Shown here one piece after another: positions 12,003 through 19,510 of a stretch of DNA of 52,474 nt. This DNA comes from Candidatus Limnocylindria bacterium. GTDB taxonomy: Bacteria > Chloroflexota > Limnocylindria > QHBO01. A model generated the notes under the pieces. The model was not told the DNA's origin, ran no database searches, and worked only from the letters and a program-made list of their open reading frames with translations. Numbering within the stretch: position 1 is the stretch's first letter; the number at the start of each line of letters is the position of its first letter. The position numbers and the translations under genes are program-made. The DNA is taken from NCBI GenBank assembly GCA_041499395.1, contig JBGQKH010000003.1, forward strand, positions 1 through 52,474. Reading direction: 5' to 3'.

Positions 12003-13739
12003 ATGCTCGCGAGCCGATTCGCCGACTTCGCCCGGACCGCGGAGGAGGTCGCCGCGACGACCTCCAAGCTGCGCAAGCGCGACCTGCTGGCCTCCTACCT
12101 GCGGGGGCTCCCCTCCGACGATGTGCCGACCGCGGCCACCTTCTTCTCGGGGCGGCCGCTCCCGGCCGCGGCGGACAAGCTGGGGCTCGGCTGGGTGCAG
12201 CAGAGCCAGGCCCTCGTCGTCGCTACAGGCGCAGGCGAGGACGCGCTCTCCGCCGCGTATCTGCGTCACTCCGACTTCGGTGACGCGGCCGCCGAGCTGC
12301 TGGCGGGACGCGACCCGGCGGGCGAGCCGCTCACCCTGGGCGAGGTGGGCGCGGCCTTTCGCGCGTTGAGCGAGGCGGAGTCCACGTCGGCTCGGGTCGC
12401 CGGCATGGCCGACCTCTTCCGGCGAGCGACGGCGCGCGAGGCGCGCTTCGTTGGCCGCATTGCCACGCGAGAGCTCCGCATCGGGCTGCGGGAAGGGCTG
12501 CTCGAGGAGGCGATTGCCACCGCCTTCCAGCGCCCGATCGAGGAGGTGCGACGCGCCCTGATGCTGGTTGGCGAGCCGGGCGAGGCGGCCGTGCTGGCTC
12601 GCGACGATCGGCTCGGGGAGGCGGCCCTGCACCTCGGCCGCCCGATCCGCTTCATGCTCGCCACGCCCGTGGCCGACGCCACGGAGGTGATGCGGCGGGT
12701 TGGGGACGAAGCGTGGATCGAGGACAAGTACGACGGGATCCGCGCTCAGCTGCACCTGGCCGGAGTGGATGCCGCGCCCCAGCTCTTCTCCCGGGACCTG
12801 AACGAGATCACCGTCTCGTTCCCCGAGGTCGCAGCCGCGGCGGCGACGCTCGGGCGCCGCCTCGTCATCGACGGCGAGCTGGTCCCGTATCGGTCCGGAT
12901 CGGTCCTCGACTTCGCCAGCCTCCAGACCCGGCTCGGGCGCGTCGACCCGTCGAAGAAGCTGCTCGAGCAGGTCCCGGTGGTGCTGGTCGCCTTCGACCT
13001 CCTCCACCTCGACGGTCGCGATCTGCTCGAGGTGCCGCTGCGTGAGCGGCGCGCCGCGCTCGAGGAGCTAAGCCTGCCGGAGCGGTCGGGGGAGCGACTC
13101 CTCTACTCGCACCTCGCCACGGCGCGCAGTGCCGCCGAGGTGGAGGCGCACTTCGACGAGGCTCGCGAGCGGCGCAACGAGGGGCTGATGGTGAAGGACC
13201 CCGGCTCGCTCTATCAGCCCGGCCGTCGCGGGCTCGGCTGGCTGAAGCTGAAGAAGGCGCTCGCCACCCTGGACTGCGTCGTGGTCGGCGTCGAATGGGG
13301 CCACGGCAAGCGGCGCGGCGTCCTCTCCGACTACACGTTCGCGGTGCGCTCAGCCGATGGCGAGGCGCTGCTCACCATCGGCAAGGCCTACACCGGCCTG
13401 ACCGATGCCGAGATCGCGACCATGACCGAGCGCTTCAAGCAGATCACGCTGCGCGACCACGGTCGGTACCGGAGCGTCGTGCCGGAGGTGGTGGTCGAGA
13501 TCGCATTCGACCGGATCATGCGCAGCACGCGGCACGGCAGCCATGGGAGCGGCTTCGCGATGCGCTTCCCGCGCATCGTCCGCATCCGCGACGACAAGAC
13601 GCCGGCAGAGATCGATGACCTGGCGACCGTGGAGACGCTCTTCGCCGCCCAGGCGAGCGGCCGCATCCTCCTCGCCCGCGGTGCTGGTGGCGAGACGGAG
13701 CGGATCAGTGCAACAGGCGCCACCGAGGGCGAGGGGTGA
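12003..13739 (+). CDS. ATP-dependent DNA ligase, LigB/archaeal-type (DBD + NTase + OB)
   Basis: Motif I EDKYDGIR, III IDGEL, IIIa AFDLL, IV EGLMVK, V WLKLK, VI MRFPRIVRIRDDK. N-terminal DNA-binding domain (ELRIG). Confidence 0.95.
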   Translation: MLASRFADFARTAEEVAATTSKLRKRDLLASYLRGLPSDDVPTAATFFSGRPLPAAADKLGLGWVQQSQALVVATGAGEDALSAAYLRHSDFGDAAAELLAGRDPAGEPLTLGEVGAAFRALSEAESTSARVAGMADLFRRATAREARFVGRIATRELRIGLREGLLEEAIATAFQRPIEEVRRALMLVGEPGEAAVLARDDRLGEAALHLGRPIRFMLATPVADATEVMRRVGDEAWIEDKYDGIRAQLHLAGVDAAPQLFSRDLNEITVSFPEVAAAAATLGRRLVIDGELVPYRSGSVLDFASLQTRLGRVDPSKKLLEQVPVVLVAFDLLHLDGRDLLEVPLRERRAALEELSLPERSGERLLYSHLATARSAAEVEAHFDEARERRNEGLMVKDPGSLYQPGRRGLGWLKLKKALATLDCVVVGVEWGHGKRRGVLSDYTFAVRSADGEALLTIGKAYTGLTDAEIATMTERFKQITLRDHGRYRSVVPEVVVEIAFDRIMRSTRHGSHGSGFAMRFPRIVRIRDDKTPAEIDDLATVETLFAAQASGRILLARGAGGETERISATGATEGEG

Positions 13740-14501
13740 CTAGGCGAGGTTCGGCGTGGCGGCGCGGACCGAGCCCAGCGCCTCTTCCTCGGTCGCCCGC
13801 AGCACCTCTTCGACGAACCCCGCCGCGCGTCGTGGATCGAGTCGCTGCACTCGCCCCATGCTCTGCGCCCACCAGGGCGCGTTGTCGGTGGTGACGACCT
13901 CGCCGATCGGCTCCTCGAGCACGACGGTCGAGTAGCCACGCGGAAATGCGACCGCCGGCGAGATGGCGAAGGTCTGCTCCCCGAGCGCGCTGCGTGTCCA
14001 GCGGGCCACCGCGGTGGCAACGGCGTCCGCGTCGAAGGACGGGTTGGTGAGGGTCGGGACCCAGCCGGCGCGCGATTTCGTGTCGTACTCCCAGCCGCGC
14101 CCCCGGACGCGGTAGCGGCCCTCCCAGCGTCGCGCGATGAAGGCCTTCACGCCTGCCGGTCCGACTAGCAGGGCGGCCAGGTCGTCGGGTACGCCGGGGA
14201 GGCGCGGAGCAAGCACCAGCGTGTAGCTGTCATCGAGGGTGGACGCCAACAGGCGGCCCAGGTCGTCGCTGATCTGCTCGCGCCGACGCCGGATGCGGGC
14301 GATGGCGCGCCACGCCATCCCTGTGCCGACGCCGAGGCCGAGCGCCGCGGAGAGGGCGAGCAGCGCGATCGGCGCGACGCGGTTCGTCGGGATGATCGCC
14401 ATGAGCGCGACGGCGGCGCCTCCCACCACGAGCATGGCGAGCGCCAGGCTGAGGCCGTTGTGGCGGAAGCCGCGGGCGACTCGTGGATGGATCAGGCGCA
14501 T
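13740..14501 (-). CDS. Membrane-anchored NERD-like protein with degenerate nuclease motif
   Basis: Two N-terminal TMs, then LDDSYTLV...LLVGPAGV...W.G.Y...NP pattern. GGAGG SD. Confidence 0.6.
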   Translation of the reverse strand: MRLIHPRVARGFRHNGLSLALAMLVVGGAAVALMAIIPTNRVAPIALLALSAALGLGVGTGMAWRAIARIRRRREQISDDLGRLLASTLDDSYTLVLAPRLPGVPDDLAALLVGPAGVKAFIARRWEGRYRVRGRGWEYDTKSRAGWVPTLTNPSFDADAVATAVARWTRSALGEQTFAISPAVAFPRGYSTVVLEEPIGEVVTTDNAPWWAQSMGRVQRLDPRRAAGFVEEVLRATEEEALGSVRAATPNLA

Positions 14502-14530
14502 CGGGAACCTCCGGCTGCTAGGCTCATGGC

Positions 14531-15022
14531 ATGCCAACGACGGCTTCCGTGCTGGCCACGGTGGTTGACCCGCAGCACGGGCTGCGTGTCGACGTGGTGA
14601 CCGGTACCGGCTTCAAGCTGACCTTCGACACGGACGATTCGGGCGAGTTGCGCGCCGGGGCCGGGCCGACCGAATCGCTGCTTGCGGCGCTCGCCGGCTG
14701 CACGTCGATGGACGTTGGACCGATCCTGCGGAAGAAGCGACAGGCGGCCGCGACCTACCGGATCGCGGTCACGGGGGAGAAGTCCGACGAGCACCCGCAG
14801 GTCTATACCGCGATCACCGTGGAGCACCAGATCACCGGCGATGTCGAGCCGGAGGCGCTGCGGCGGTCGATCGAGCTCTCCGCGACGCGGTACTGCCCAG
14901 TGAGCGCCATGCTCTCGCGCTCCGTGCGTATCGAGCATCGCTACCGGCTGCGACAGGACGGCCACGAGGAGATCCGCGCGCTGGTTGCGATCACCGGGCC
15001 AGAGGGTGCACAGGTCCTCTGA
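14531..15022 (+). CDS. OsmC/Ohr-family protein (YhfA-like)
   Basis: GPTESLLAALAGCTSMDV..IL.K and S..RYCPVSAML, both conserved Cys present. Confidence 0.9.
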   Translation: MPTTASVLATVVDPQHGLRVDVVTGTGFKLTFDTDDSGELRAGAGPTESLLAALAGCTSMDVGPILRKKRQAAATYRIAVTGEKSDEHPQVYTAITVEHQITGDVEPEALRRSIELSATRYCPVSAMLSRSVRIEHRYRLRQDGHEEIRALVAITGPEGAQVL

Positions 15023-15145: not shown

Positions 15146-16009
15146 ATGGCACGTTCGATGTGGCGCGGGGCGATCCAGTTCGGCCTGGTGACGATCCCGG
15201 TCAAGCTCTACCTGGCGACCGAGAGCGGCGGCATCGGCTTCAACATGCTGCATGCCAGCTGCGGCAACCGGATCCAGATGAAGATCTACTGCCCCTTCCA
15301 CGACGAGGTGGTGCCGCGTTCTGAGACGGTCCGCGGCTACGAGTGGAGCAAGGGACGGTACGTCGTCGTAACCGACGAGGACATCGACTCGGTCCCGCTC
15401 AAGACGGTGCGCGCCATCGAGATCGAGATGGTCGTCGACGCCCACCGCGAGGGGCAGGGGATCGAGTTCGTGAAGCAGGCCTACTACCTCGAGCCCGACC
15501 CGATCGGCCGCAAGGCGTTCGAGCTCCTGCGGCAGGTCCTGGCCGACCAGGGCAAGACCGCCATCTGCAAGATCGTGCTGAAGGATCGCGAGCAGCTCGC
15601 CGCGCTCAATCCGTACACCAAGACGATGCTGCTCACCACCCTGCACTGGCCCGATGAGGTCCGCTCGCTCGACGAGCTGAACATCCCCGACGAGGAGATC
15701 GAGGTGAAGCCCGCCGAGCGAAAGATGGCGGAGCAGCTGATCGCGTCGATGGAGGGCCAGTTCTCGGCCGATGACTACCGTGACGACTACCGCAAGGCCC
15801 TGATGGCGGTGATCGACGCCAAGGTCGCCGGCGAGGCACCCACCCCGGCGCAGCGGGTTGAGCCGACCAAGATCGGAGACCTGATGGCGGCCCTCGAGGC
15901 GAGCGTCGCAGCCGCGCGCGAGGCGCGGCGCGAGAGCGCCGCCGAGCCAGTCGCGGAGAAGGCCAGCGCCGGCGAGGCCGCACCAGCGCGGCGCCGCAAG
16001 AGCGCCTAG
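15146..16009 (+). CDS. ku: Non-homologous end joining protein Ku
   Basis: RSMWRGAIQFGLVTIPVKLY, RGYE, YYLEPD, LHWPDEVR, DDYR, DLMAALEASV, basic C-terminal tail. Confidence 0.97.
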   Translation: MARSMWRGAIQFGLVTIPVKLYLATESGGIGFNMLHASCGNRIQMKIYCPFHDEVVPRSETVRGYEWSKGRYVVVTDEDIDSVPLKTVRAIEIEMVVDAHREGQGIEFVKQAYYLEPDPIGRKAFELLRQVLADQGKTAICKIVLKDREQLAALNPYTKTMLLTTLHWPDEVRSLDELNIPDEEIEVKPAERKMAEQLIASMEGQFSADDYRDDYRKALMAVIDAKVAGEAPTPAQRVEPTKIGDLMAALEASVAAAREARRESAAEPVAEKASAGEAAPARRRKSA

Positions 16010-16017
16010 CCGGCCGC

Positions 16018-16707
16018 GTGGCGGCAGACCAGCTCCCACTCCCGATCGCGCCCCCGGGCTCGCCCCGCCGCCGGCTCCCATCCCGCGTCAGGCCGATGCA
16101 GGCCACCGAGGCGGCGGCTCCCTTCGACGACCCCGACTATCTCTTCGAGCCGTGGTGGCCGGGGGCCCGGGCGATCGCCTTCTGCGAGCGCGGCGAGCTC
16201 CGCCTCCAGGTGTCCGGCATGGCGGACGCGCTGGCCGCCTTCCCCGAGCTGGGGGAGATGCCCCGCCAGCTCGCGGAAGACGGCGTCATCCTGGACGGGA
16301 CGCTGCTCGTGCTCGACGACGCGGGACGCCCCGACCCCGACCTGCTGCGCGTCCGCCTCGCGGCGCAGGGTCGGCCCGGGCGCCCCGCCTACGTGGCCAG
16401 CGACCTTCTCTGGAGCGGCGGGCAGCCGGTGGTCGCCCGCTCATTCGCGGTGCGGCGGCGCTGGCTGGAGGCGATCCTCACCCCTGGCGATCGCGTCACC
16501 GTGGGACGCGGTTACCGAGGCGACGGGACGCTGGTGGCCGAGGCGCTTGGGGCGCTCGGGATCGATGGCCTCTCGGCGCGGCACCTCGCCGCTCGCCACC
16601 GGTCCGGGAGGGCCGGCGTCGCGTGGCTGCGTGCTTCGATTGCGGCTCCGGAGCCGCGTCCGCGGCCGACGCTCGCGCTCATCCTTCGCCTCCCGCTCGA
16701 CGGCTAG
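16018..16707 (+). CDS. ATP-dependent DNA ligase adenylation-domain homolog, catalytic residues substituted, no OB domain
   Basis: PM.A....PFDDPDYLFEP lead-in, FPEL, ILDG, DLL and RR..LE match LigD/LigC ligase domains, but motif I KxDG reads WWPG. Confidence 0.8.
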   Translation: MAADQLPLPIAPPGSPRRRLPSRVRPMQATEAAAPFDDPDYLFEPWWPGARAIAFCERGELRLQVSGMADALAAFPELGEMPRQLAEDGVILDGTLLVLDDAGRPDPDLLRVRLAAQGRPGRPAYVASDLLWSGGQPVVARSFAVRRRWLEAILTPGDRVTVGRGYRGDGTLVAEALGALGIDGLSARHLAARHRSGRAGVAWLRASIAAPEPRPRPTLALILRLPLDG

Positions 16708-18863
16708 GGGGCCAGCAGCGGCTCCAGGTCCCACGGCCACGGCCTGCTCGACAGCAGCCGTTGCGCCGCCTTTATGAGGCCGTCGCCGGGATACGCGCGG
16801 AACGAACCGATGTCGTAGGAGATGATGGGGATCTCGGGCGCCTCCTTGGTGAGCACCCAGCCACGGATGAGGTTCCCCATCTGAACCGCCGTGGAGCTGT
16901 CCTCGCCCCAGTGGGCCAGCAGCAGCATCGCAACGTCCCATGTGAGGGGGTCTGCCGGCTGCTCCACATAGGCAGCCTCCATGGCCGATCGAGCCGCGTC
17001 CCGGTTTCCCTCCATCCCAAAGGCGAGCGCTCGAATGCTGGCCAGGGCATAAGACCCGGGCTGCACGTTCTCGCCGCCCTTTCTGCGGGCGACCAGCTGC
17101 GCCAGTTCCCCGTTGAACGTGCCGCTCGCTACTCCCGGCTCGTTGATCGGAGCGACCGGCCGCGGCCACGGGACGAGCATGCCGGTCTGCCAATCGGCGA
17201 GCAGCGCCGCTCCATACAGCGCATCGGCCTGCGTCGGCCGTCCAAGTGCCTCGAAGACCAGAGCCGCGTTGACGAGCGCCACGGCGCTCCGCCCCGAGGT
17301 GTCGAGCGCATGCCGCGCAGCCTCGGCAGCGCAGGCCCGGTCGCCATCCTGCAGGCAGATGAGCGACAGGTTCGTCCACGATGCCCAGTCGCCGCGATTC
17401 AGCGCGACGGCCCGCTCTGTGCTGCTCCGCGCGAGGTCGGTCTCGCCCTCGTGGTCTGCCGCCAGCGAGAGGGCCTTCGGGCCGGCGGGGTGGCCAGGGT
17501 TCAGCTGGACCGAGATGCTGAAGTCACTGAGCCCATCCGCCCACGCGCCGGCAGCCACCGCATCGGTCCCCGCGCGGTACGAGATCGCGGACGCGTCGGC
17601 CAGGATTACCACCACCACCATCCCAGCGGCGGCGACTGCCAACCCGCTGGCACCCCAGCCGCGCCCTCGCCGCTGGACGGGGCGCCACTCCACCGCCCCG
17701 GCGTCGCGAAGTGCGACGGCGGCGAGCAGGATGAGCAGCAGGTTGACGTTCGGCAGGAAGGTCAGGTCGTCCGTGAGAAACCCAGCTGCCACACCGACCA
17801 GGACGGCATAGGCGGCTCGCCCGGGAAGGGGATGCTCCCGACGTGGCCGAGCGATCCATGCGAATCGCAGGAACAGGACAAGCGCGACGACCAGCCCCGC
17901 GAGCCCGGCGTCGCCAAGGATGCCCAGCGGCACGTCGTGGGAGTGTGGCTGGACGAGCGGGGCGATCGCCTGTCGTGCGTAGGCCATCGCGCCCGGACCG
18001 ATGCCGAGCATCGGGTGGGCGCTCCAGACGTGAAGTGTCACATCCCACAGCGTGCCTCGATAGGCCAGCGAGGTGGTCTGCGTCAGCCTCGGCGCGACAT
18101 ACGCGACGGCGGCGGCGCCCAGCACCAGAAGCGCGACTCCGGTCACGATGCGACCGGGTGAGGGGCGCATTGCGGCGCGCAGCTCCCGGATTGAGAGGGT
18201 GGCCATCACGAGGGCAGCGACAGCAAACGCGATCCATGCCGAACGGGACCCGCTGACGAGGGTGAGCGGCACGCAGAGCGCCAAGAGCGGCCAGAGGAGC
18301 CACCTCCGCAGCTCGGGCCTGGTCACGACCAGGGCCAGCGGCAAGGTGGCCAGCAGCACGAAGGGGGGGACCGTCACGAGGCCGAACTGCGTCACCTCGT
18401 TCGGCAGGCGAACCGGCGGCAGGCCAAGGCCCCCGGCCAGCACCCAGTCGATGCGGCGCCAGGCAAGGCTCCAGAGGCTGATCGCGGCAAGGCCGATGAC
18501 TGGGACGACGACGACCAGCGCCGTCAGGTTCGGCCGATGGCGAAGCGCCACCAGCGCCACGGGCAGCATCAGGGAGGTGACCACGATGCCGGCGAAGGCG
18601 GGAGCGGAGAGCCCGATGTTCCAGGCCGAGATGGTCGCGATCCCCTCGGTGACGAGGAGTGCAAGGAGTGGAAGGTCGATGGGCGTTCGCGGCATCGCTT
18701 CGCCGCGCAGCGCCATCCAGGCCAGCACGCCAATCGCCGCCGCGGCCGCGAGGTGGAGGACGGCCTGGAGACGCGGGTCCCAGAGGGCGTTGTCCCAGCC
18801 GACCTTCGTGGCAATGACGACAACGACGCCAAGCGCGACGATCCACGCCAGTCGCCGGATCAC
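16704..18863 (-). CDS. O-antigen ligase (WaaL/Wzy_C)-family membrane protein with C-terminal TPR-like region
   Basis: Many TMs, SGSRSAWIA, R..LW.......HPMLGIGPG, HSHD..L..L.D.GL.G, then Ala-rich TPR-like helices (AVALNRGDWASWTNL). GTG overlaps the upstream stop. Confidence 0.8.
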   Translation of the reverse strand: MIRRLAWIVALGVVVVIATKVGWDNALWDPRLQAVLHLAAAAAIGVLAWMALRGEAMPRTPIDLPLLALLVTEGIATISAWNIGLSAPAFAGIVVTSLMLPVALVALRHRPNLTALVVVVPVIGLAAISLWSLAWRRIDWVLAGGLGLPPVRLPNEVTQFGLVTVPPFVLLATLPLALVVTRPELRRWLLWPLLALCVPLTLVSGSRSAWIAFAVAALVMATLSIRELRAAMRPSPGRIVTGVALLVLGAAAVAYVAPRLTQTTSLAYRGTLWDVTLHVWSAHPMLGIGPGAMAYARQAIAPLVQPHSHDVPLGILGDAGLAGLVVALVLFLRFAWIARPRREHPLPGRAAYAVLVGVAAGFLTDDLTFLPNVNLLLILLAAVALRDAGAVEWRPVQRRGRGWGASGLAVAAAGMVVVVILADASAISYRAGTDAVAAGAWADGLSDFSISVQLNPGHPAGPKALSLAADHEGETDLARSSTERAVALNRGDWASWTNLSLICLQDGDRACAAEAARHALDTSGRSAVALVNAALVFEALGRPTQADALYGAALLADWQTGMLVPWPRPVAPINEPGVASGTFNGELAQLVARRKGGENVQPGSYALASIRALAFGMEGNRDAARSAMEAAYVEQPADPLTWDVAMLLLAHWGEDSSTAVQMGNLIRGWVLTKEAPEIPIISYDIGSFRAYPGDGLIKAAQRLLSSRPWPWDLEPLLAP

Positions 18864-19510
18864 GACGAGGAGGCCCCGATCAGGGCGAGTGCGTGCTGGA
18901 TCTTCGTCATCGGGTCCGCCTGGAGCCCATGGATCCGCTCCAGCGCCTGCCACAGGTGGTCCGCCTCGCGCGCGCCGGGCGCCGTGGACGGGTCGAGCTC
19001 GAGCTCCACGATGTGCAGCAGGCCGACCGTGACGTCGCCCGTCACGACCCGCACCCGGTCAAGCGAGAGGATTCCCGCCCGGCGTCCCCGCATCAGGACC
19101 GCGCGCTCGGTCCGGGTCTGGGCGAGCGTGAACTGCTCGACCAGCGGCTCGCCGCCCGACATCGCGTCGAGCAGGTCGCGAGCCTCCGAGCGCGGCCACG
19201 CCGAGGGCGTTACCTCCACGGTCGCCGGACCGTTCACCTCCGGTCGACGGTGCAGCACGGCGCCCTCGGCATGCTGCGCGGGACCCTTCAGCGAGACCGT
19301 CGTCGATCCCTCCCGGGTGCGGAGGCGGCACGCCCAGCCCTGATCGGCGAGGCGACCTTCGACCGTGTCCAGGTAGCGATCCAGCTCGTCCACAGTTCGC
19401 GGCGCTCCCAGTCGCGCGCCTCCGAGCGTCTCCCGCGTCGCGAGCCCTGCCAACGGCGCCTCGTCATCGGCGATCAGCTTGAGCTCCGATTCGATGGCGG
19501 GCGCGCTCAT
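18860..19510 (-). CDS. CYTH-domain protein (triphosphate tunnel metalloenzyme)
   Basis: N-terminal ESELK (ExExK), DRYLDT, CRLR, SLKG, RPEV, LDRV, VELEL, C-terminal TK. ATGA overlap with the WYL gene. Confidence 0.85.
   Translation of the reverse strand: MSAPAIESELKLIADDEAPLAGLATRETLGGARLGAPRTVDELDRYLDTVEGRLADQGWACRLRTREGSTTVSLKGPAQHAEGAVLHRRPEVNGPATVEVTPSAWPRSEARDLLDAMSGGEPLVEQFTLAQTRTERAVLMRGRRAGILSLDRVRVVTGDVTVGLLHIVELELDPSTAPGAREADHLWQALERIHGLQADPMTKIQHALALIGASSS

Follow-up and report, generated by a model that had tools for sequence, protein, structure and literature searches.

Bacterial end joining is described, in the reviews and abstracts consulted, as a two-protein system formed by Ku and LigD. 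The protein reported here, a pseudo-ligase encoded directly downstream of ku, has its closest relative by both sequence and fold in the ligase domain of M. tuberculosis (Mtb) LigD (Rv0938; structures 1VS0, 6NHX, and 6NHZ; Foldseek E about 1e-12). The two have the F-P-E-L and G-R-P-D scaffold in common and both appear in a Ku-linked end-joining setting, whereas the pseudo-ligase has no nucleophile lysine, carries altered motifs III, IIIa, IV, and V, and lacks OB, POL, and PE domains. Linear motifs at both of its ends have no counterpart in the LigD of its own genome. The stand-alone ligases of the LigC type, which consist of an NTase and an OB domain, resemble it in being small and free-standing and in belonging to the same ligase branch; LigC, however, is an active ligase with K-x-D-G and OB, and the pseudo-ligase has neither.

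Other systems offer parallels for single aspects of this protein. XRCC4, XLF, and PAXX are enzymatically inactive accessories that stand beside Ku and the ligase in eukaryotes. DNA ligase I bears a PCNA-binding motif at its N-terminus, and Hda is a clamp-tethered regulator of DnaA, the folded domain of which acts only on the DNA-loaded clamp.

Organization of the ku locus

The window, by which we mean the whole stretch of 52,474 nucleotides that was analysed, contains ku (287 aa; 15146..16009, + strand) as the first gene of a pair. Its product matches TIGR02772 at 5.3e-79 and the Pfam Ku family at 1.8e-39, and it is the single Ku match in the genome. The second gene is an ORF of 229 aa with a GTG start (16018..16707, + strand), which encodes an NTase fold of the LigD type without lysine, OB, POL, or PE. 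Since the ku stop ends at 16009 and the GTG lies at 16018, the two genes are separated by 8 nt, the distance stated in the initial annotation. On the opposite strand, a convergent gene for a Wzy/O-antigen-ligase-like TPR membrane protein (16704..18953, − strand) overlaps the pseudo-ligase stop by 4 nt with its 3' end and closes the ku unit. A LigB-type ATP-dependent DNA ligase (578 aa; 12003..13739, + strand) with an intact K-Y-D-G and the Pfam N, M, and C ligase domains is also encoded in the window, and its gene is syntenic in those loci of the family that are long enough to include its position.

Between 14400 and 17000, the search for sigma-70 promoters and intrinsic terminators returned 0 and 0 sites, compared with 0.1 and 0.6 expected from shuffling. 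Among 20 sequencing runs, 3 are recorded as RNA, at 0.05-0.07 of the sampled words. Short RNA-library contigs of relatives (85% likeness) touch ku and the ORF at 16096-16251 (two records in X17 and one in X19); DNA carry-over is possible in such libraries and contigs cannot show a transcript, and these contigs were left out of the evidence.

A ligase fold that has lost its catalytic residues

The LigD model PRK09632 matches residues 17-206 of the pseudo-ligase at 1.5e-25, and TIGR02779, the NHEJ ligase domain, matches at 2.5e-18; the scores of 89.6 and 66.3 lie far below the curated cut-offs of 989 and 227.75, and Pfam DNA_ligase_A_M (PF01068) reaches 23.5 bits, below its cut-off of 26.2. The Mtb LigD ligase domain (1vs0, 6nhx) is matched at about 5e-16 with 28% identity. 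An AF2 model of the protein (pLDDT 88.6, pTM 0.81) has ligase adenylation domains as its top Foldseek matches, including 3rr5 (E 1.3e-13, TMq 0.72), and Mtb LigD 6nhx is found at E 9e-13. Profiles, structure matches, and fold thus support the LigD/LigC adenylation scaffold recognized in the initial annotation.

The nucleotide-binding motifs were compared with those of Mtb LigD, whose residue numbering (anchors K481 and K635) follows PMC8656161; all positions below are on the + strand. The motif I remnant reads F-E-P-W-W-P-G (residues 43-49; 16144..16164) against F-E-G-K-W-D-G in Mtb LigD, so that W46 takes the place of K481, the adenylated lysine, and P48 aligns with the motif I Asp; a pattern search hit this site at 16144-16163. 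Motif III is L-D-G-T (residues 92-95; 16291..16302), with Thr for the Glu of L-D-G-E, and motif IIIa is V-A-S-D-L-L (residues 126-131; 16393..16410), with Ser for the Phe of A-F-D. Motif IV reads D-G-L-S-A-R (residues 183-188; 16564..16581) instead of E-G-x-x-A-K, in which Glu became Asp and Lys became Arg, and motif V reads W-L-R (residues 203-205; 16624..16632) instead of W-V-K, again with Arg for Lys; S207 stands opposite the second lysine that LigD has in motif V. Every substitution that had been listed for motifs I, III, IIIa, IV, and V is present in this alignment, and those of motifs III, IIIa, IV, and V are conserved across the pseudo-ligase family.

The alignment with Mtb LigD stops at motif V, and the pseudo-ligase ends 24 residues further on. 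A family search of the 229 aa gave no match to OB (PF04679), POL, or PE, in line with the single domain already annotated. The protein contains 0 lysines, compared with 17 in Ku, 14 in LigB, and 20 in LigD; 22 of the 30 aligned family members are likewise lysine-free, and no alignment column has K in at least three rows. Because the nucleophile lysine and the other nucleotide-contacting residues are gone and OB is absent, the pseudo-ligase, as read from its sequence, cannot be adenylated or seal DNA. Most database entries name it “hypothetical protein”, and some sources call it “LigD” or “ATP-dependent DNA ligase”, names that on the same reading cannot be right.

The altered pocket, with W-W-P-G and Arg for Lys, could have kept an affinity for nucleotides, or for DNA ends adenylated at the 5' side, and serve another chemistry, such as the sensing or removal of abortive ligation intermediates. 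W46, W47, P48, G49, D70, and R205 are invariant in the family alignment (A1), and this points to selection on the pocket region itself. All ATP/AMP contacts of Mtb LigD are nevertheless replaced (K481, motif III Glu, motif IIIa Phe, E613, K635, and K637), the protein offers no lysine, and an OB domain that could close over a substrate is missing; we consider a cryptic activity of this kind very unlikely.

Conservation and selection

All data come from metagenome-assembled genomes. Of the 120 database proteins closest to the pseudo-ligase, 119 keep W-W-P-G and the remaining one reads E-A-W-W-P-G; the signature also occurs in 33 of the best 150 representatives at 50% identity and is retained down to about 43% identity. 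Among 66 family genomes matched at E of 2e-61 or better, 62 have an intact reading frame. In the tree, all 28 W-W-P-G rows and two variant or truncated rows form one clade (SH-aLRT 99), and a second branch with a support of 99 separates the 111 other ligase segments from it. In the ESM Atlas, the matches are confined to clusters of the protein itself, which come from Chloroflexota and are labelled “hypothetical protein”.

Purifying selection was estimated from 15 pairs drawn from 6 loci of the window's genus. The mean dN/dS of the pseudo-ligase is 0.153 (range 0.118-0.180), as compared to 0.147 for ku in the same pairs, and the folded core (0.127) and the C-terminal tail (0.129) are similarly constrained. 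The protein combines the loss of its catalytic residues with a sequence kept under purifying selection, as defines a pseudoenzyme. The conservation of W-W-P-G together with the dN/dS values rules out recent decay or a sequencing error, so that the protein is maintained, as had been proposed. A copy of the ligD ligase domain that arose by duplication and is decaying without a function of its own would explain why the protein scores below curated family cut-offs and goes mostly unnamed in databases, but a dN/dS of 0.15, equal to that of ku, the frame kept in nearly all genomes of the family, the deep retention of W-W-P-G, and the conservation of both tails refute it, and we give it practically no credence.

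Linkage to ku and coexistence with LigD

In all 50 loci of the window's own family (f1), the gene immediately upstream, in the same orientation, is ku. The distance from the ku stop to the first aligned pseudo-ligase residue is 4-31 nt in 48 loci, and the remaining two have distances of 64 and 97 nt. A sister family (f3) shows this arrangement in 10 of 11 loci, which bears out the conserved adjacency to ku. At locus L039, no ku was found within 4 kb. At one sister-family locus, L040, the gene order is ku, pseudo-ligase, and a LigD of 1106 aa with PE-LIG-POL architecture, whose gene starts 34 nt past the pseudo-ligase stop. Paralogues that are not linked to ku have neighbours (PPK2, EamA, MFS, ABC-2, and peptidase S9) among which no repair context was seen.

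The genome also encodes intact ligases. A full PE-LIG-POL LigD of 882 aa with an intact K-W-D-G is on contig C6, and a LigC-like ligase is on contig C4; with the LigB at 12003, ligases able to act in trans exist, as the initial annotation assumed. LigD is present in all five near-complete f1 genomes checked, where its gene is found on a separate contig or at a distance of at least about 1 Mb. The idea that the dead ligase replaces LigD as the partner of Ku does not hold, as LigD coexists with it in these five genomes and follows it in the gene row of L040. The reading that LigD is lacking beside this Ku is rejected, given the LigD on C6 and the same five genomes.

An N-terminal motif that resembles clamp-binding peptides

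At its N-terminus, the pseudo-ligase carries the clamp-binding-like motif D-Q-L-P-L-P-I (residues 4-10; 16027..16047, + strand), recognized by family conservation and a complex model. Its family form is [DE]-Q-L-x-L-[PS]-[IVL], and it is present in 60 of 61 W-W-P-G loci, the exception being L013. Counting from the Gln as position 1, Q is kept in 54 of the 60 loci, the L of position 2 in 59, and the L of position 4 in all 60; position 6 is I, V, L, or F in 48 and non-hydrophobic in 12, and in the loci of genus g3 the residue after Q-L-P-L-P is A, G, E, or T. The segment has low pLDDT in the AF2 model. A start at Met27, which gives the 203-aa form of 77 of the 120 database entries, was rejected: the 26 translated residues before it align from residue 1-5 in most loci, stops just upstream fix the N-terminal start in at least 11 loci, and the motif itself is conserved. 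Since most database entries start at Met27, the motif is hidden in them. It had been missed in the initial annotation, and it alters the mechanism that seems likely.

The hexapeptide consensus for clamp binding is given as Q-phi-x-L-x-L, with Q-L-S-L-P-L in Hda, in two sources (bioRxiv 10.64898/2026.05.27.728225; PMC4564189), and Q-L-P-L-P-I of the window (residues 5-10) agrees with it. For the B. subtilis clamp, weak binding of hexapeptide motifs is described, and the preference of a Chloroflexota clamp may be another. Of the 150 representatives, 28 belong to lysine-less clades other than that of the pseudo-ligase. Distant lysine-less relatives in Dehalococcoidia begin with M-P-Q-L-S-L-F, which corresponds to the pentapeptide consensus, and the DinB of the genome itself contains Q-L-T-L-F. 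The background frequency of the motif pattern is 10 in 46,353 residues.

We modelled residues 1-30 with two copies of the beta sliding clamp, DnaN. The three runs scored 0.65, 0.66, and 0.64, and the best of three controls scored 0.00; in the calibration, from which our own alignments and the use of two clamp copies differ, this mark was reached by 58 of 80 solved complexes and, among the mismatched pairs, by 2 of 110. At least 83% of the contacts agree between runs, and the partner pLDDT is at least 51. Residues 2-11 are placed on one DnaN protomer, in contact with residues 172, 174-177, 245-247, 250, 281, 283, 324, and 326 and, further, with 350, 352, 366, and 368-373. The model places the motif in the cleft of DnaN that receives such peptides, its probable docking site; as clamp-peptide complexes have already been solved, the modelled docking may reflect the memory of the model and speaks for likeness to known motifs, not for binding.

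Two described proteins combine such a motif with a folded domain. E. coli Hda has its hexapeptide at the extreme N-terminus with Pro at position 5, like the pseudo-ligase. The likeness is architectural only, because Hda has an AAA+ fold and an unrelated pathway, and a clamp tether of the pseudo-ligase would be its analogue. The DNA ligase I of eukaryotes and archaea shares both the ligase fold and an N-terminal clamp-binding or clamp-binding-like motif, and the archaeal ligase-PCNA-DNA structures 7rpo and 7rpx are among the fold matches of the pseudo-ligase; in contrast, ligase I is active, has DBD and OB domains, and uses PCNA as its clamp. Paralogues that are unlinked to ku share the N-terminal motif, and its role is thus not specific to Ku.

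Alternatively, the terminal motifs may bind Ku or LigD, so that the protein is an internal scaffold between these two and the likeness to clamp motifs is a coincidence. The frequent lack of a hydrophobic residue at position 6, the common prolines at positions 3 and 5, and a C-terminal R-L-P-L tail that is under the same constraint as the core without having been assigned a partner are consistent with this, as is a model pass that may stem from memorized clamp-peptide complexes. The retention of the Gln and of both leucines (positions 1, 2, and 4) in 54, 59, and 60 of 60 loci, the change to an exact pentapeptide, Q-L-S-L-F, in homologues, the motif of the ku-unlinked paralogues, and the DnaN controls at zero argue against it, and we regard this explanation as unlikely.

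The C-terminal tail and a putative Ku-contact surface

A second conserved tail follows motif V, R-P-x-L-x-L-x-x-R-L-P-L (residues 216-227; 16663..16698, + strand; alignment A1), and was missed in the initial annotation. P217, L219, and L225 are invariant in this alignment, R216, L221, R224, P226, and L227 are found in at least 90% of its rows, and the AF2 model gives the tail a pLDDT of 53-57.

In Mtb LigD, the ligase domain contacts the Ku C-terminus through D522, K579, and L580, according to PMC13717202. These residues align with E87, R148, and W149 of the pseudo-ligase, as counted by hand on the Mtb LigD alignment with the anchors K481=W46 and K635=R205. The protein had also been proposed to bind DNA ends. 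Its core is mildly acidic (pI 5.7; family median 5.5), which speaks against a simple DNA-end binder, and its charge lends that proposal no support. A simple basic DNA-binding protein is likewise disfavoured.

The acidic, basic, and hydrophobic residues retained at the positions aligned with the Ku contacts of Mtb LigD would also suit a brake or decoy, in which the dead NTase occupies the LigD-engaging surface of Ku, its C-terminal arm, and, on clamps behind replication forks, blocks joining by Ku and LigD. A binding surface without catalysis is the classic make-up of a competitor, and the ku linkage, the motif conservation, and the clamp model fit such a role as they fit the accessory that we prefer. 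The position between ku and ligD in the f3 gene row, on the other hand, suits a stoichiometric subunit at least equally, and we hold a brake to be rather unlikely.

Discussion

On balance, we consider it probable that the maintained pseudo-ligase is a non-catalytic accessory or adaptor of Ku-dependent end joining and that it is tethered to the clamp. This explanation builds on the fold, the catalytic loss, the purifying selection, the linkage to ku, the coexistence with LigD, and the conservation of both tails. The pseudoenzyme would be an NTase domain of the LigD type that has lost the lysine nucleophile, the nucleotide contacts, and the OB domain, and Ku and the pseudo-ligase would be made from one transcription unit. 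Sealing would be left to the intact LigD of the genome, and possibly to LigB. The folded core would carry two flexible, conserved tails on either side, of which [DE]-Q-L-x-L-[PS]-[IVL] would, by the complex model, occupy the peptide-binding cleft of the beta sliding clamp. Acting as a recruiter or as a regulator, the pseudo-ligase could in this way connect the machinery of Ku with clamps loaded on DNA. We infer a contact with Ku from the gene order, and we also infer the direction of its effect on repair.

Of the interpretation offered initially, the maintained pseudo-ligase, its link to ku, and the existence of a ligase able to act in trans are retained, the DNA-end binder is not favoured, and the replacement of LigD is abandoned. 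Tentatively, the adaptor may in this lineage be part of a clamp-coupled, three-part form of end joining. A lysine-free adaptor would grip Ku with its core or C-terminal tail, through the surface used by the LigD ligase domain, and the beta clamp with its N-terminal motif, linking double-strand-break repair to DNA-loaded clamps. The lysine-less homologues with a clamp motif in other Chloroflexota would then represent a wider class of clamp-tethered pseudo-ligases. We find this extended scheme possible, albeit doubtful.

The literature searched, which covers few subscription journals, yielded neither a lysine-less, Ku-linked ligase homologue nor a paper that connects end joining in bacteria with the clamp; the clamp-like motif suggests such a connection. 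The protein represents a clean case of a pseudoenzyme derived from a ligase, with its nucleophile site replaced by a conserved W-W-P-G and the whole protein free of lysine. If our explanation is true, bacteria would have in this protein an equivalent to the scaffold factors of eukaryotes; XRCC4, XLF, and PAXX are not homologous to it, and the logic is alike but not the ancestry. A conserved, non-catalytic third component in the ku unit would then change the picture of end joining by Ku and LigD for a class of soil and sediment bacteria.

The pseudo-ligase and its neighbourhood

The ku gene of the window (15146-16009, + strand; TIGR02772, 5.3e-79) is followed, 8 nt after its stop codon, by an ORF of 229 codons with a GTG start at 16018 (16018-16707, + strand), the product of which we refer to as the pseudo-ligase. 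In the best-supported reading, it would be an accessory of Ku-dependent end joining that has no catalytic role, is translated with Ku, and has its N-terminus tethered to the sliding clamp. The window makes up contig C3 of a metagenome-assembled genome (1.86 Mb, 79% complete, ~71% G+C), and the named homologues of the protein come from Chloroflexota, 'Candidatus Limnocylindria'. Upstream of ku lie the genes for OsmC (14531-15022), for a 265-aa protein without a Pfam match at E up to 0.1 (13740-14537, - strand), and for a LigB-type ligase (12003-13739), while the pseudo-ligase gene overlaps at its 3' end, by 4 nt, with the end of a convergent gene for a Wzy/TPR membrane protein. This syntenic block, from LigB to Wzy, recurs in most loci of the window's own family that reach that far. 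The 265-aa protein is kept at the same place in most of the family's loci that reach it (42-58% identity), and may be part of the same repair neighbourhood.

A ligase fold without catalytic residues

The closest likeness of the pseudo-ligase is to the LigD ligase domain (PRK09632, 1.5e-25; TIGR02779, 2.5e-18), with the Mtb LigD structures 1vs0 and 6nhx matching at about 5e-16, and its scores fall far under every curated family cut-off. A HMMER alignment with Mtb LigD bore out the altered catalytic motifs described in the initial annotation. In motif I, W46 stands opposite K481, the adenylated lysine of Mtb LigD (numbering as in PMC8656161), and P48 opposite the motif I Asp; Glu of motif III is replaced by Thr and Phe of motif IIIa by Ser. 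Motif IV has D-G-x-x-A-R where LigD has E-G-x-x-A-K, and motif V reads W-L-R, with R205 opposite K635 and S207 opposite K637. The C-terminus follows only 24 residues past motif V, and, as had also been proposed, none of the OB, POL and PE families matched. The protein contains no lysine, as compared to 17 in Ku, 14 in LigB, and 20 in LigD.

An AlphaFold2 model built from a 30-sequence alignment (pLDDT 88.6, pTM 0.81; confident save for residues 1-20 and 210-229) has ligase adenylation domains as its best structural matches (3rr5, 1.3e-13, TMq 0.72; Mtb LigD, 9e-13), supporting the ligase NTase fold. A cryptic catalytic role is unlikely, since every nucleotide-contacting residue and all lysines have been lost. 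With a pI of 5.7 (family median, 5.5), the core is mildly acidic, and this disfavours the plain DNA-end binder that had been suggested.

Distribution and conservation

A near full-length orthologue was found in 62 of the 66 other genomes of the window's family (E 2.1e-61 or better). Three more (G162, G174, and G192) hold partial or interrupted pieces, and G042 gives a weak match only (2.3e-20), possibly to another ligase. In the sister family, matches at about 1e-46 or better occur in 9/60 genomes, and four more have partial matches carrying the W-W-P-G signature of motif I (K-x-D-G in active ligases) or its neighbourhood. In a further family, f2, the best matches share 32-37% identity, and their frames span about 360 or >800 codons, indicating true ligases. 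These tallies take in unpublished genomes (G087, G096, G123, and G159 of the window's family, and five of f2). Two loci are irregular: L013 (genome G003) lacks the N-terminal motif region and has one TGA and one TAG in the extended match, and the orthologue at L055 (genome G161) aligns as two pieces; in both, the gene is otherwise conserved, and a frameshift or an assembly error may be the cause.

A back-translated motif pattern was present in 18 of 401 Chloroflexota genomes, with 0 for the reversed control. The carriers are the window's genome itself, 12/16 of its family, 4/23 of the sister family, and 1/6 of family f6, with none in the remaining families. The f6 match (G225:C29:481-500), the sole one outside the class, sits at a contig start in a genome with 9% contamination, and from its position could be contamination or transfer.

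Among the best 120 of 728 database matches (70-97% identical), motif I is E-P-W-W-P-G in 119 and E-A-W-W-P-G in 1. Representatives at 50% identity, searched exhaustively, yielded 4927 matches, of which the best 150 were inspected at motif I: 33 have W-W-P, the most distant at about 43% identity, and nine fragments lack the region. One of the 33, P0137 (E-P-W-W-P-A), and 27 further rows have another non-lysine residue at the nucleophile position. In a 'quick' IQ-TREE tree of 141 NTase segments, all 28 W-W-P-G rows fall in one clade together with two variant or truncated rows (SH-aLRT 99), and another branch at 99 splits off the 111 other ligase segments. Elsewhere on the tree, lysine was lost in several places, and the starred branches require the non-lysine label to have changed at least 7 times.

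The Nei-Gojobori dN/dS, computed for 15 pairs drawn from six loci within the window's genus, averaged 0.153 (0.118-0.180), close to 0.147 for ku in the same pairs; by part, it was 0.127 in the core, 0.129 in the C-terminal tail, and 0.46 in the N-terminal 26 residues. The retention of W-W-P-G in relatives and the low dN/dS rule out a decaying gene, and the view that the protein is maintained holds.

Linkage to ku and LigD

The adjacency to ku, the conservation of which had been proposed as a check, is kept in 50/50 loci of the window's family (48/48 without the unpublished G087 and G096) and in 10/11 of the sister family, with ku directly upstream on the same strand. The distance from the ku stop to the first aligned residue is 4-31 nt in 48 loci of the window's family, and 64 and 97 nt in two where the alignment begins later; gaps in the sister family are 29-607 nt, and no ku lies within 4 kb of its locus L039.

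A scan for LigD, also suggested with the initial annotation, found it in the window's genome, as a complete protein (882 aa) on contig C6, with a LigC-like ligase on contig C4, and in 5/5 near-complete genomes of the family, where it is either on a different contig or roughly 1 Mb or more away from ku. At L040 of the sister family, ku, the pseudo-ligase gene, and ligD stand in a row; this LigD (1106 aa, PE-LIG-POL, intact K-W-D-G) starts 34 nt past the pseudo-ligase stop, and a second ligase-domain match lies at the same place in four more loci. Two f2 genomes without the pseudo-ligase have LigD within about 3 kb of ku, divergently oriented. As LigD occurs in the same genomes as ku and the pseudo-ligase, the latter adds to Ku and LigD and does not replace LigD.

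A putative clamp-binding motif

Of the 120 closest database entries, 77 are annotated from Met27 (203 aa form, skipping window positions 16018-16095), which cuts off a conserved N-terminal motif. This start was ruled out, as the upstream 26 codons align as protein family-wide and at least 11 loci have stops a few codons ahead of them. The start codon, mostly GTG, is two or three codons before the motif, which is present in 60/61 W-W-P-G loci and 33-49 residues from motif I. Over these 60 loci, D or E occupies position 0 (52), Q position 1 (54), L position 2 (59), L position 4 (all 60), P or S position 5 (47), and I, V, L or F position 6 (48). By sequence, the motif fits the hexapeptide clamp-binding consensus Q-phi-x-L-x-L, and it resembles Q-L-S-L-P-L at the N-terminus of E. 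coli Hda and Q-L-V-L-G-L of Pol IV (bioRxiv 10.64898/2026.05.27.728225 and PMC4564189). DinB of the same genome has Q-L-T-L-F near its C-terminal end, indicating that this organism makes use of the canonical clamp motif. The long six-frame ORFs of the window, 46,353 residues in total, hold 10 background occurrences of the pattern. A C-terminal tail, R216-L227, which ends in R-L-P-L and has eight positions invariant or nearly so, was found in about 100/112 family sequences.

We modelled residues 1-30 (30-row alignment) with two copies of the genome's beta sliding clamp, DnaN (374 aa, 23-row alignment). The scores were 0.65, 0.66, and 0.64 against 0.00 for the best of three controls, with a score mark reached by 58/80 solved complexes and 2/110 mismatched pairs, from the calibration of which our own alignments and two clamp copies depart. 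Contact agreement between the runs was at least 83% and partner pLDDT at least 51. Residues 2-11 contact DnaN 172, 174-177, 245-247, 250, 281, 283, 324, 326, 350, 352, 366, and 368-373 of one protomer; this is where known motifs bind, in the cleft that separates domains II and III and at the C-terminal strand. The model supports binding without showing it: what it shows is that the peptide resembles a clamp-binding motif, and, since clamp-peptide complexes are already solved, its score may reflect those known structures.

Lysine-less relatives

Nine ku-unlinked paralogues in the sister family (L046-L054) all have D/E-Q-L-x-L-x-L at the N-terminus and the R-L-P-L tail too. They form a separate clade (SH-aLRT 100) of lysine-less ligase folds of 241-256 aa, with x-W-G-G at motif I (one x-W-A-G), and the neighbours inspected encode PPK2, EamA, MFS, ABC-2 transporter, and peptidase S9 proteins. 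Lysine-less (K to L) NTase+OB homologues of about 330 aa from Dehalococcoidia metagenomes (P0143, P0271, and P0272) begin with M-P-Q-L-S-L-F, which matches the pentapeptide consensus for clamp binding exactly. A second short lysine-less ligase-fold paralogue is encoded in the window's genome, on contig C5 (L004:1414-2052, - strand; 212 aa; PF01068, 3.7e-8), with motif I E-P-C-W-S-G, a very long tree branch, and an adjoining DEAD-box helicase gene; inspection of its N-terminus found no clear Q-L-x-L motif. Similar paralogues lie 35-45 kb from ku in four other genomes of the family. In P0303 and P0305 (Pseudonocardiaceae metagenomes; about 530-540 aa), S replaces the motif I lysine (F-E-F-S-W-G-G), and the ligase domain is joined to the histidine-kinase domains PF02518 and PF06580.

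Discussion

Three ligase-domain residues of Mtb LigD, D522, K579, and L580, are reported to help form the contact with the C-terminus of Ku (PMC13717202). By hand count on the HMMER alignment, they correspond to E87, R148, and W149, which are chemically similar, common in the close family, and variable in remote members, a sequence pattern at most compatible with a retained Ku-binding surface. The accessory could work in two ways. As an adaptor, the clamp-tethered pseudo-ligase would recruit; as a decoy, it may instead restrain, mimicking the partner for the Ku arm that engages LigD.

In the literature searched, largely open-access main texts that included PMC10140301 and PMC7719229, neither a lysine-less ligase homologue linked to Ku nor a connection of the clamp with bacterial end joining was described. 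What is new here, on this reading, is a Ku/LigD system with an extra, non-catalytic component that is probably tethered to the clamp.
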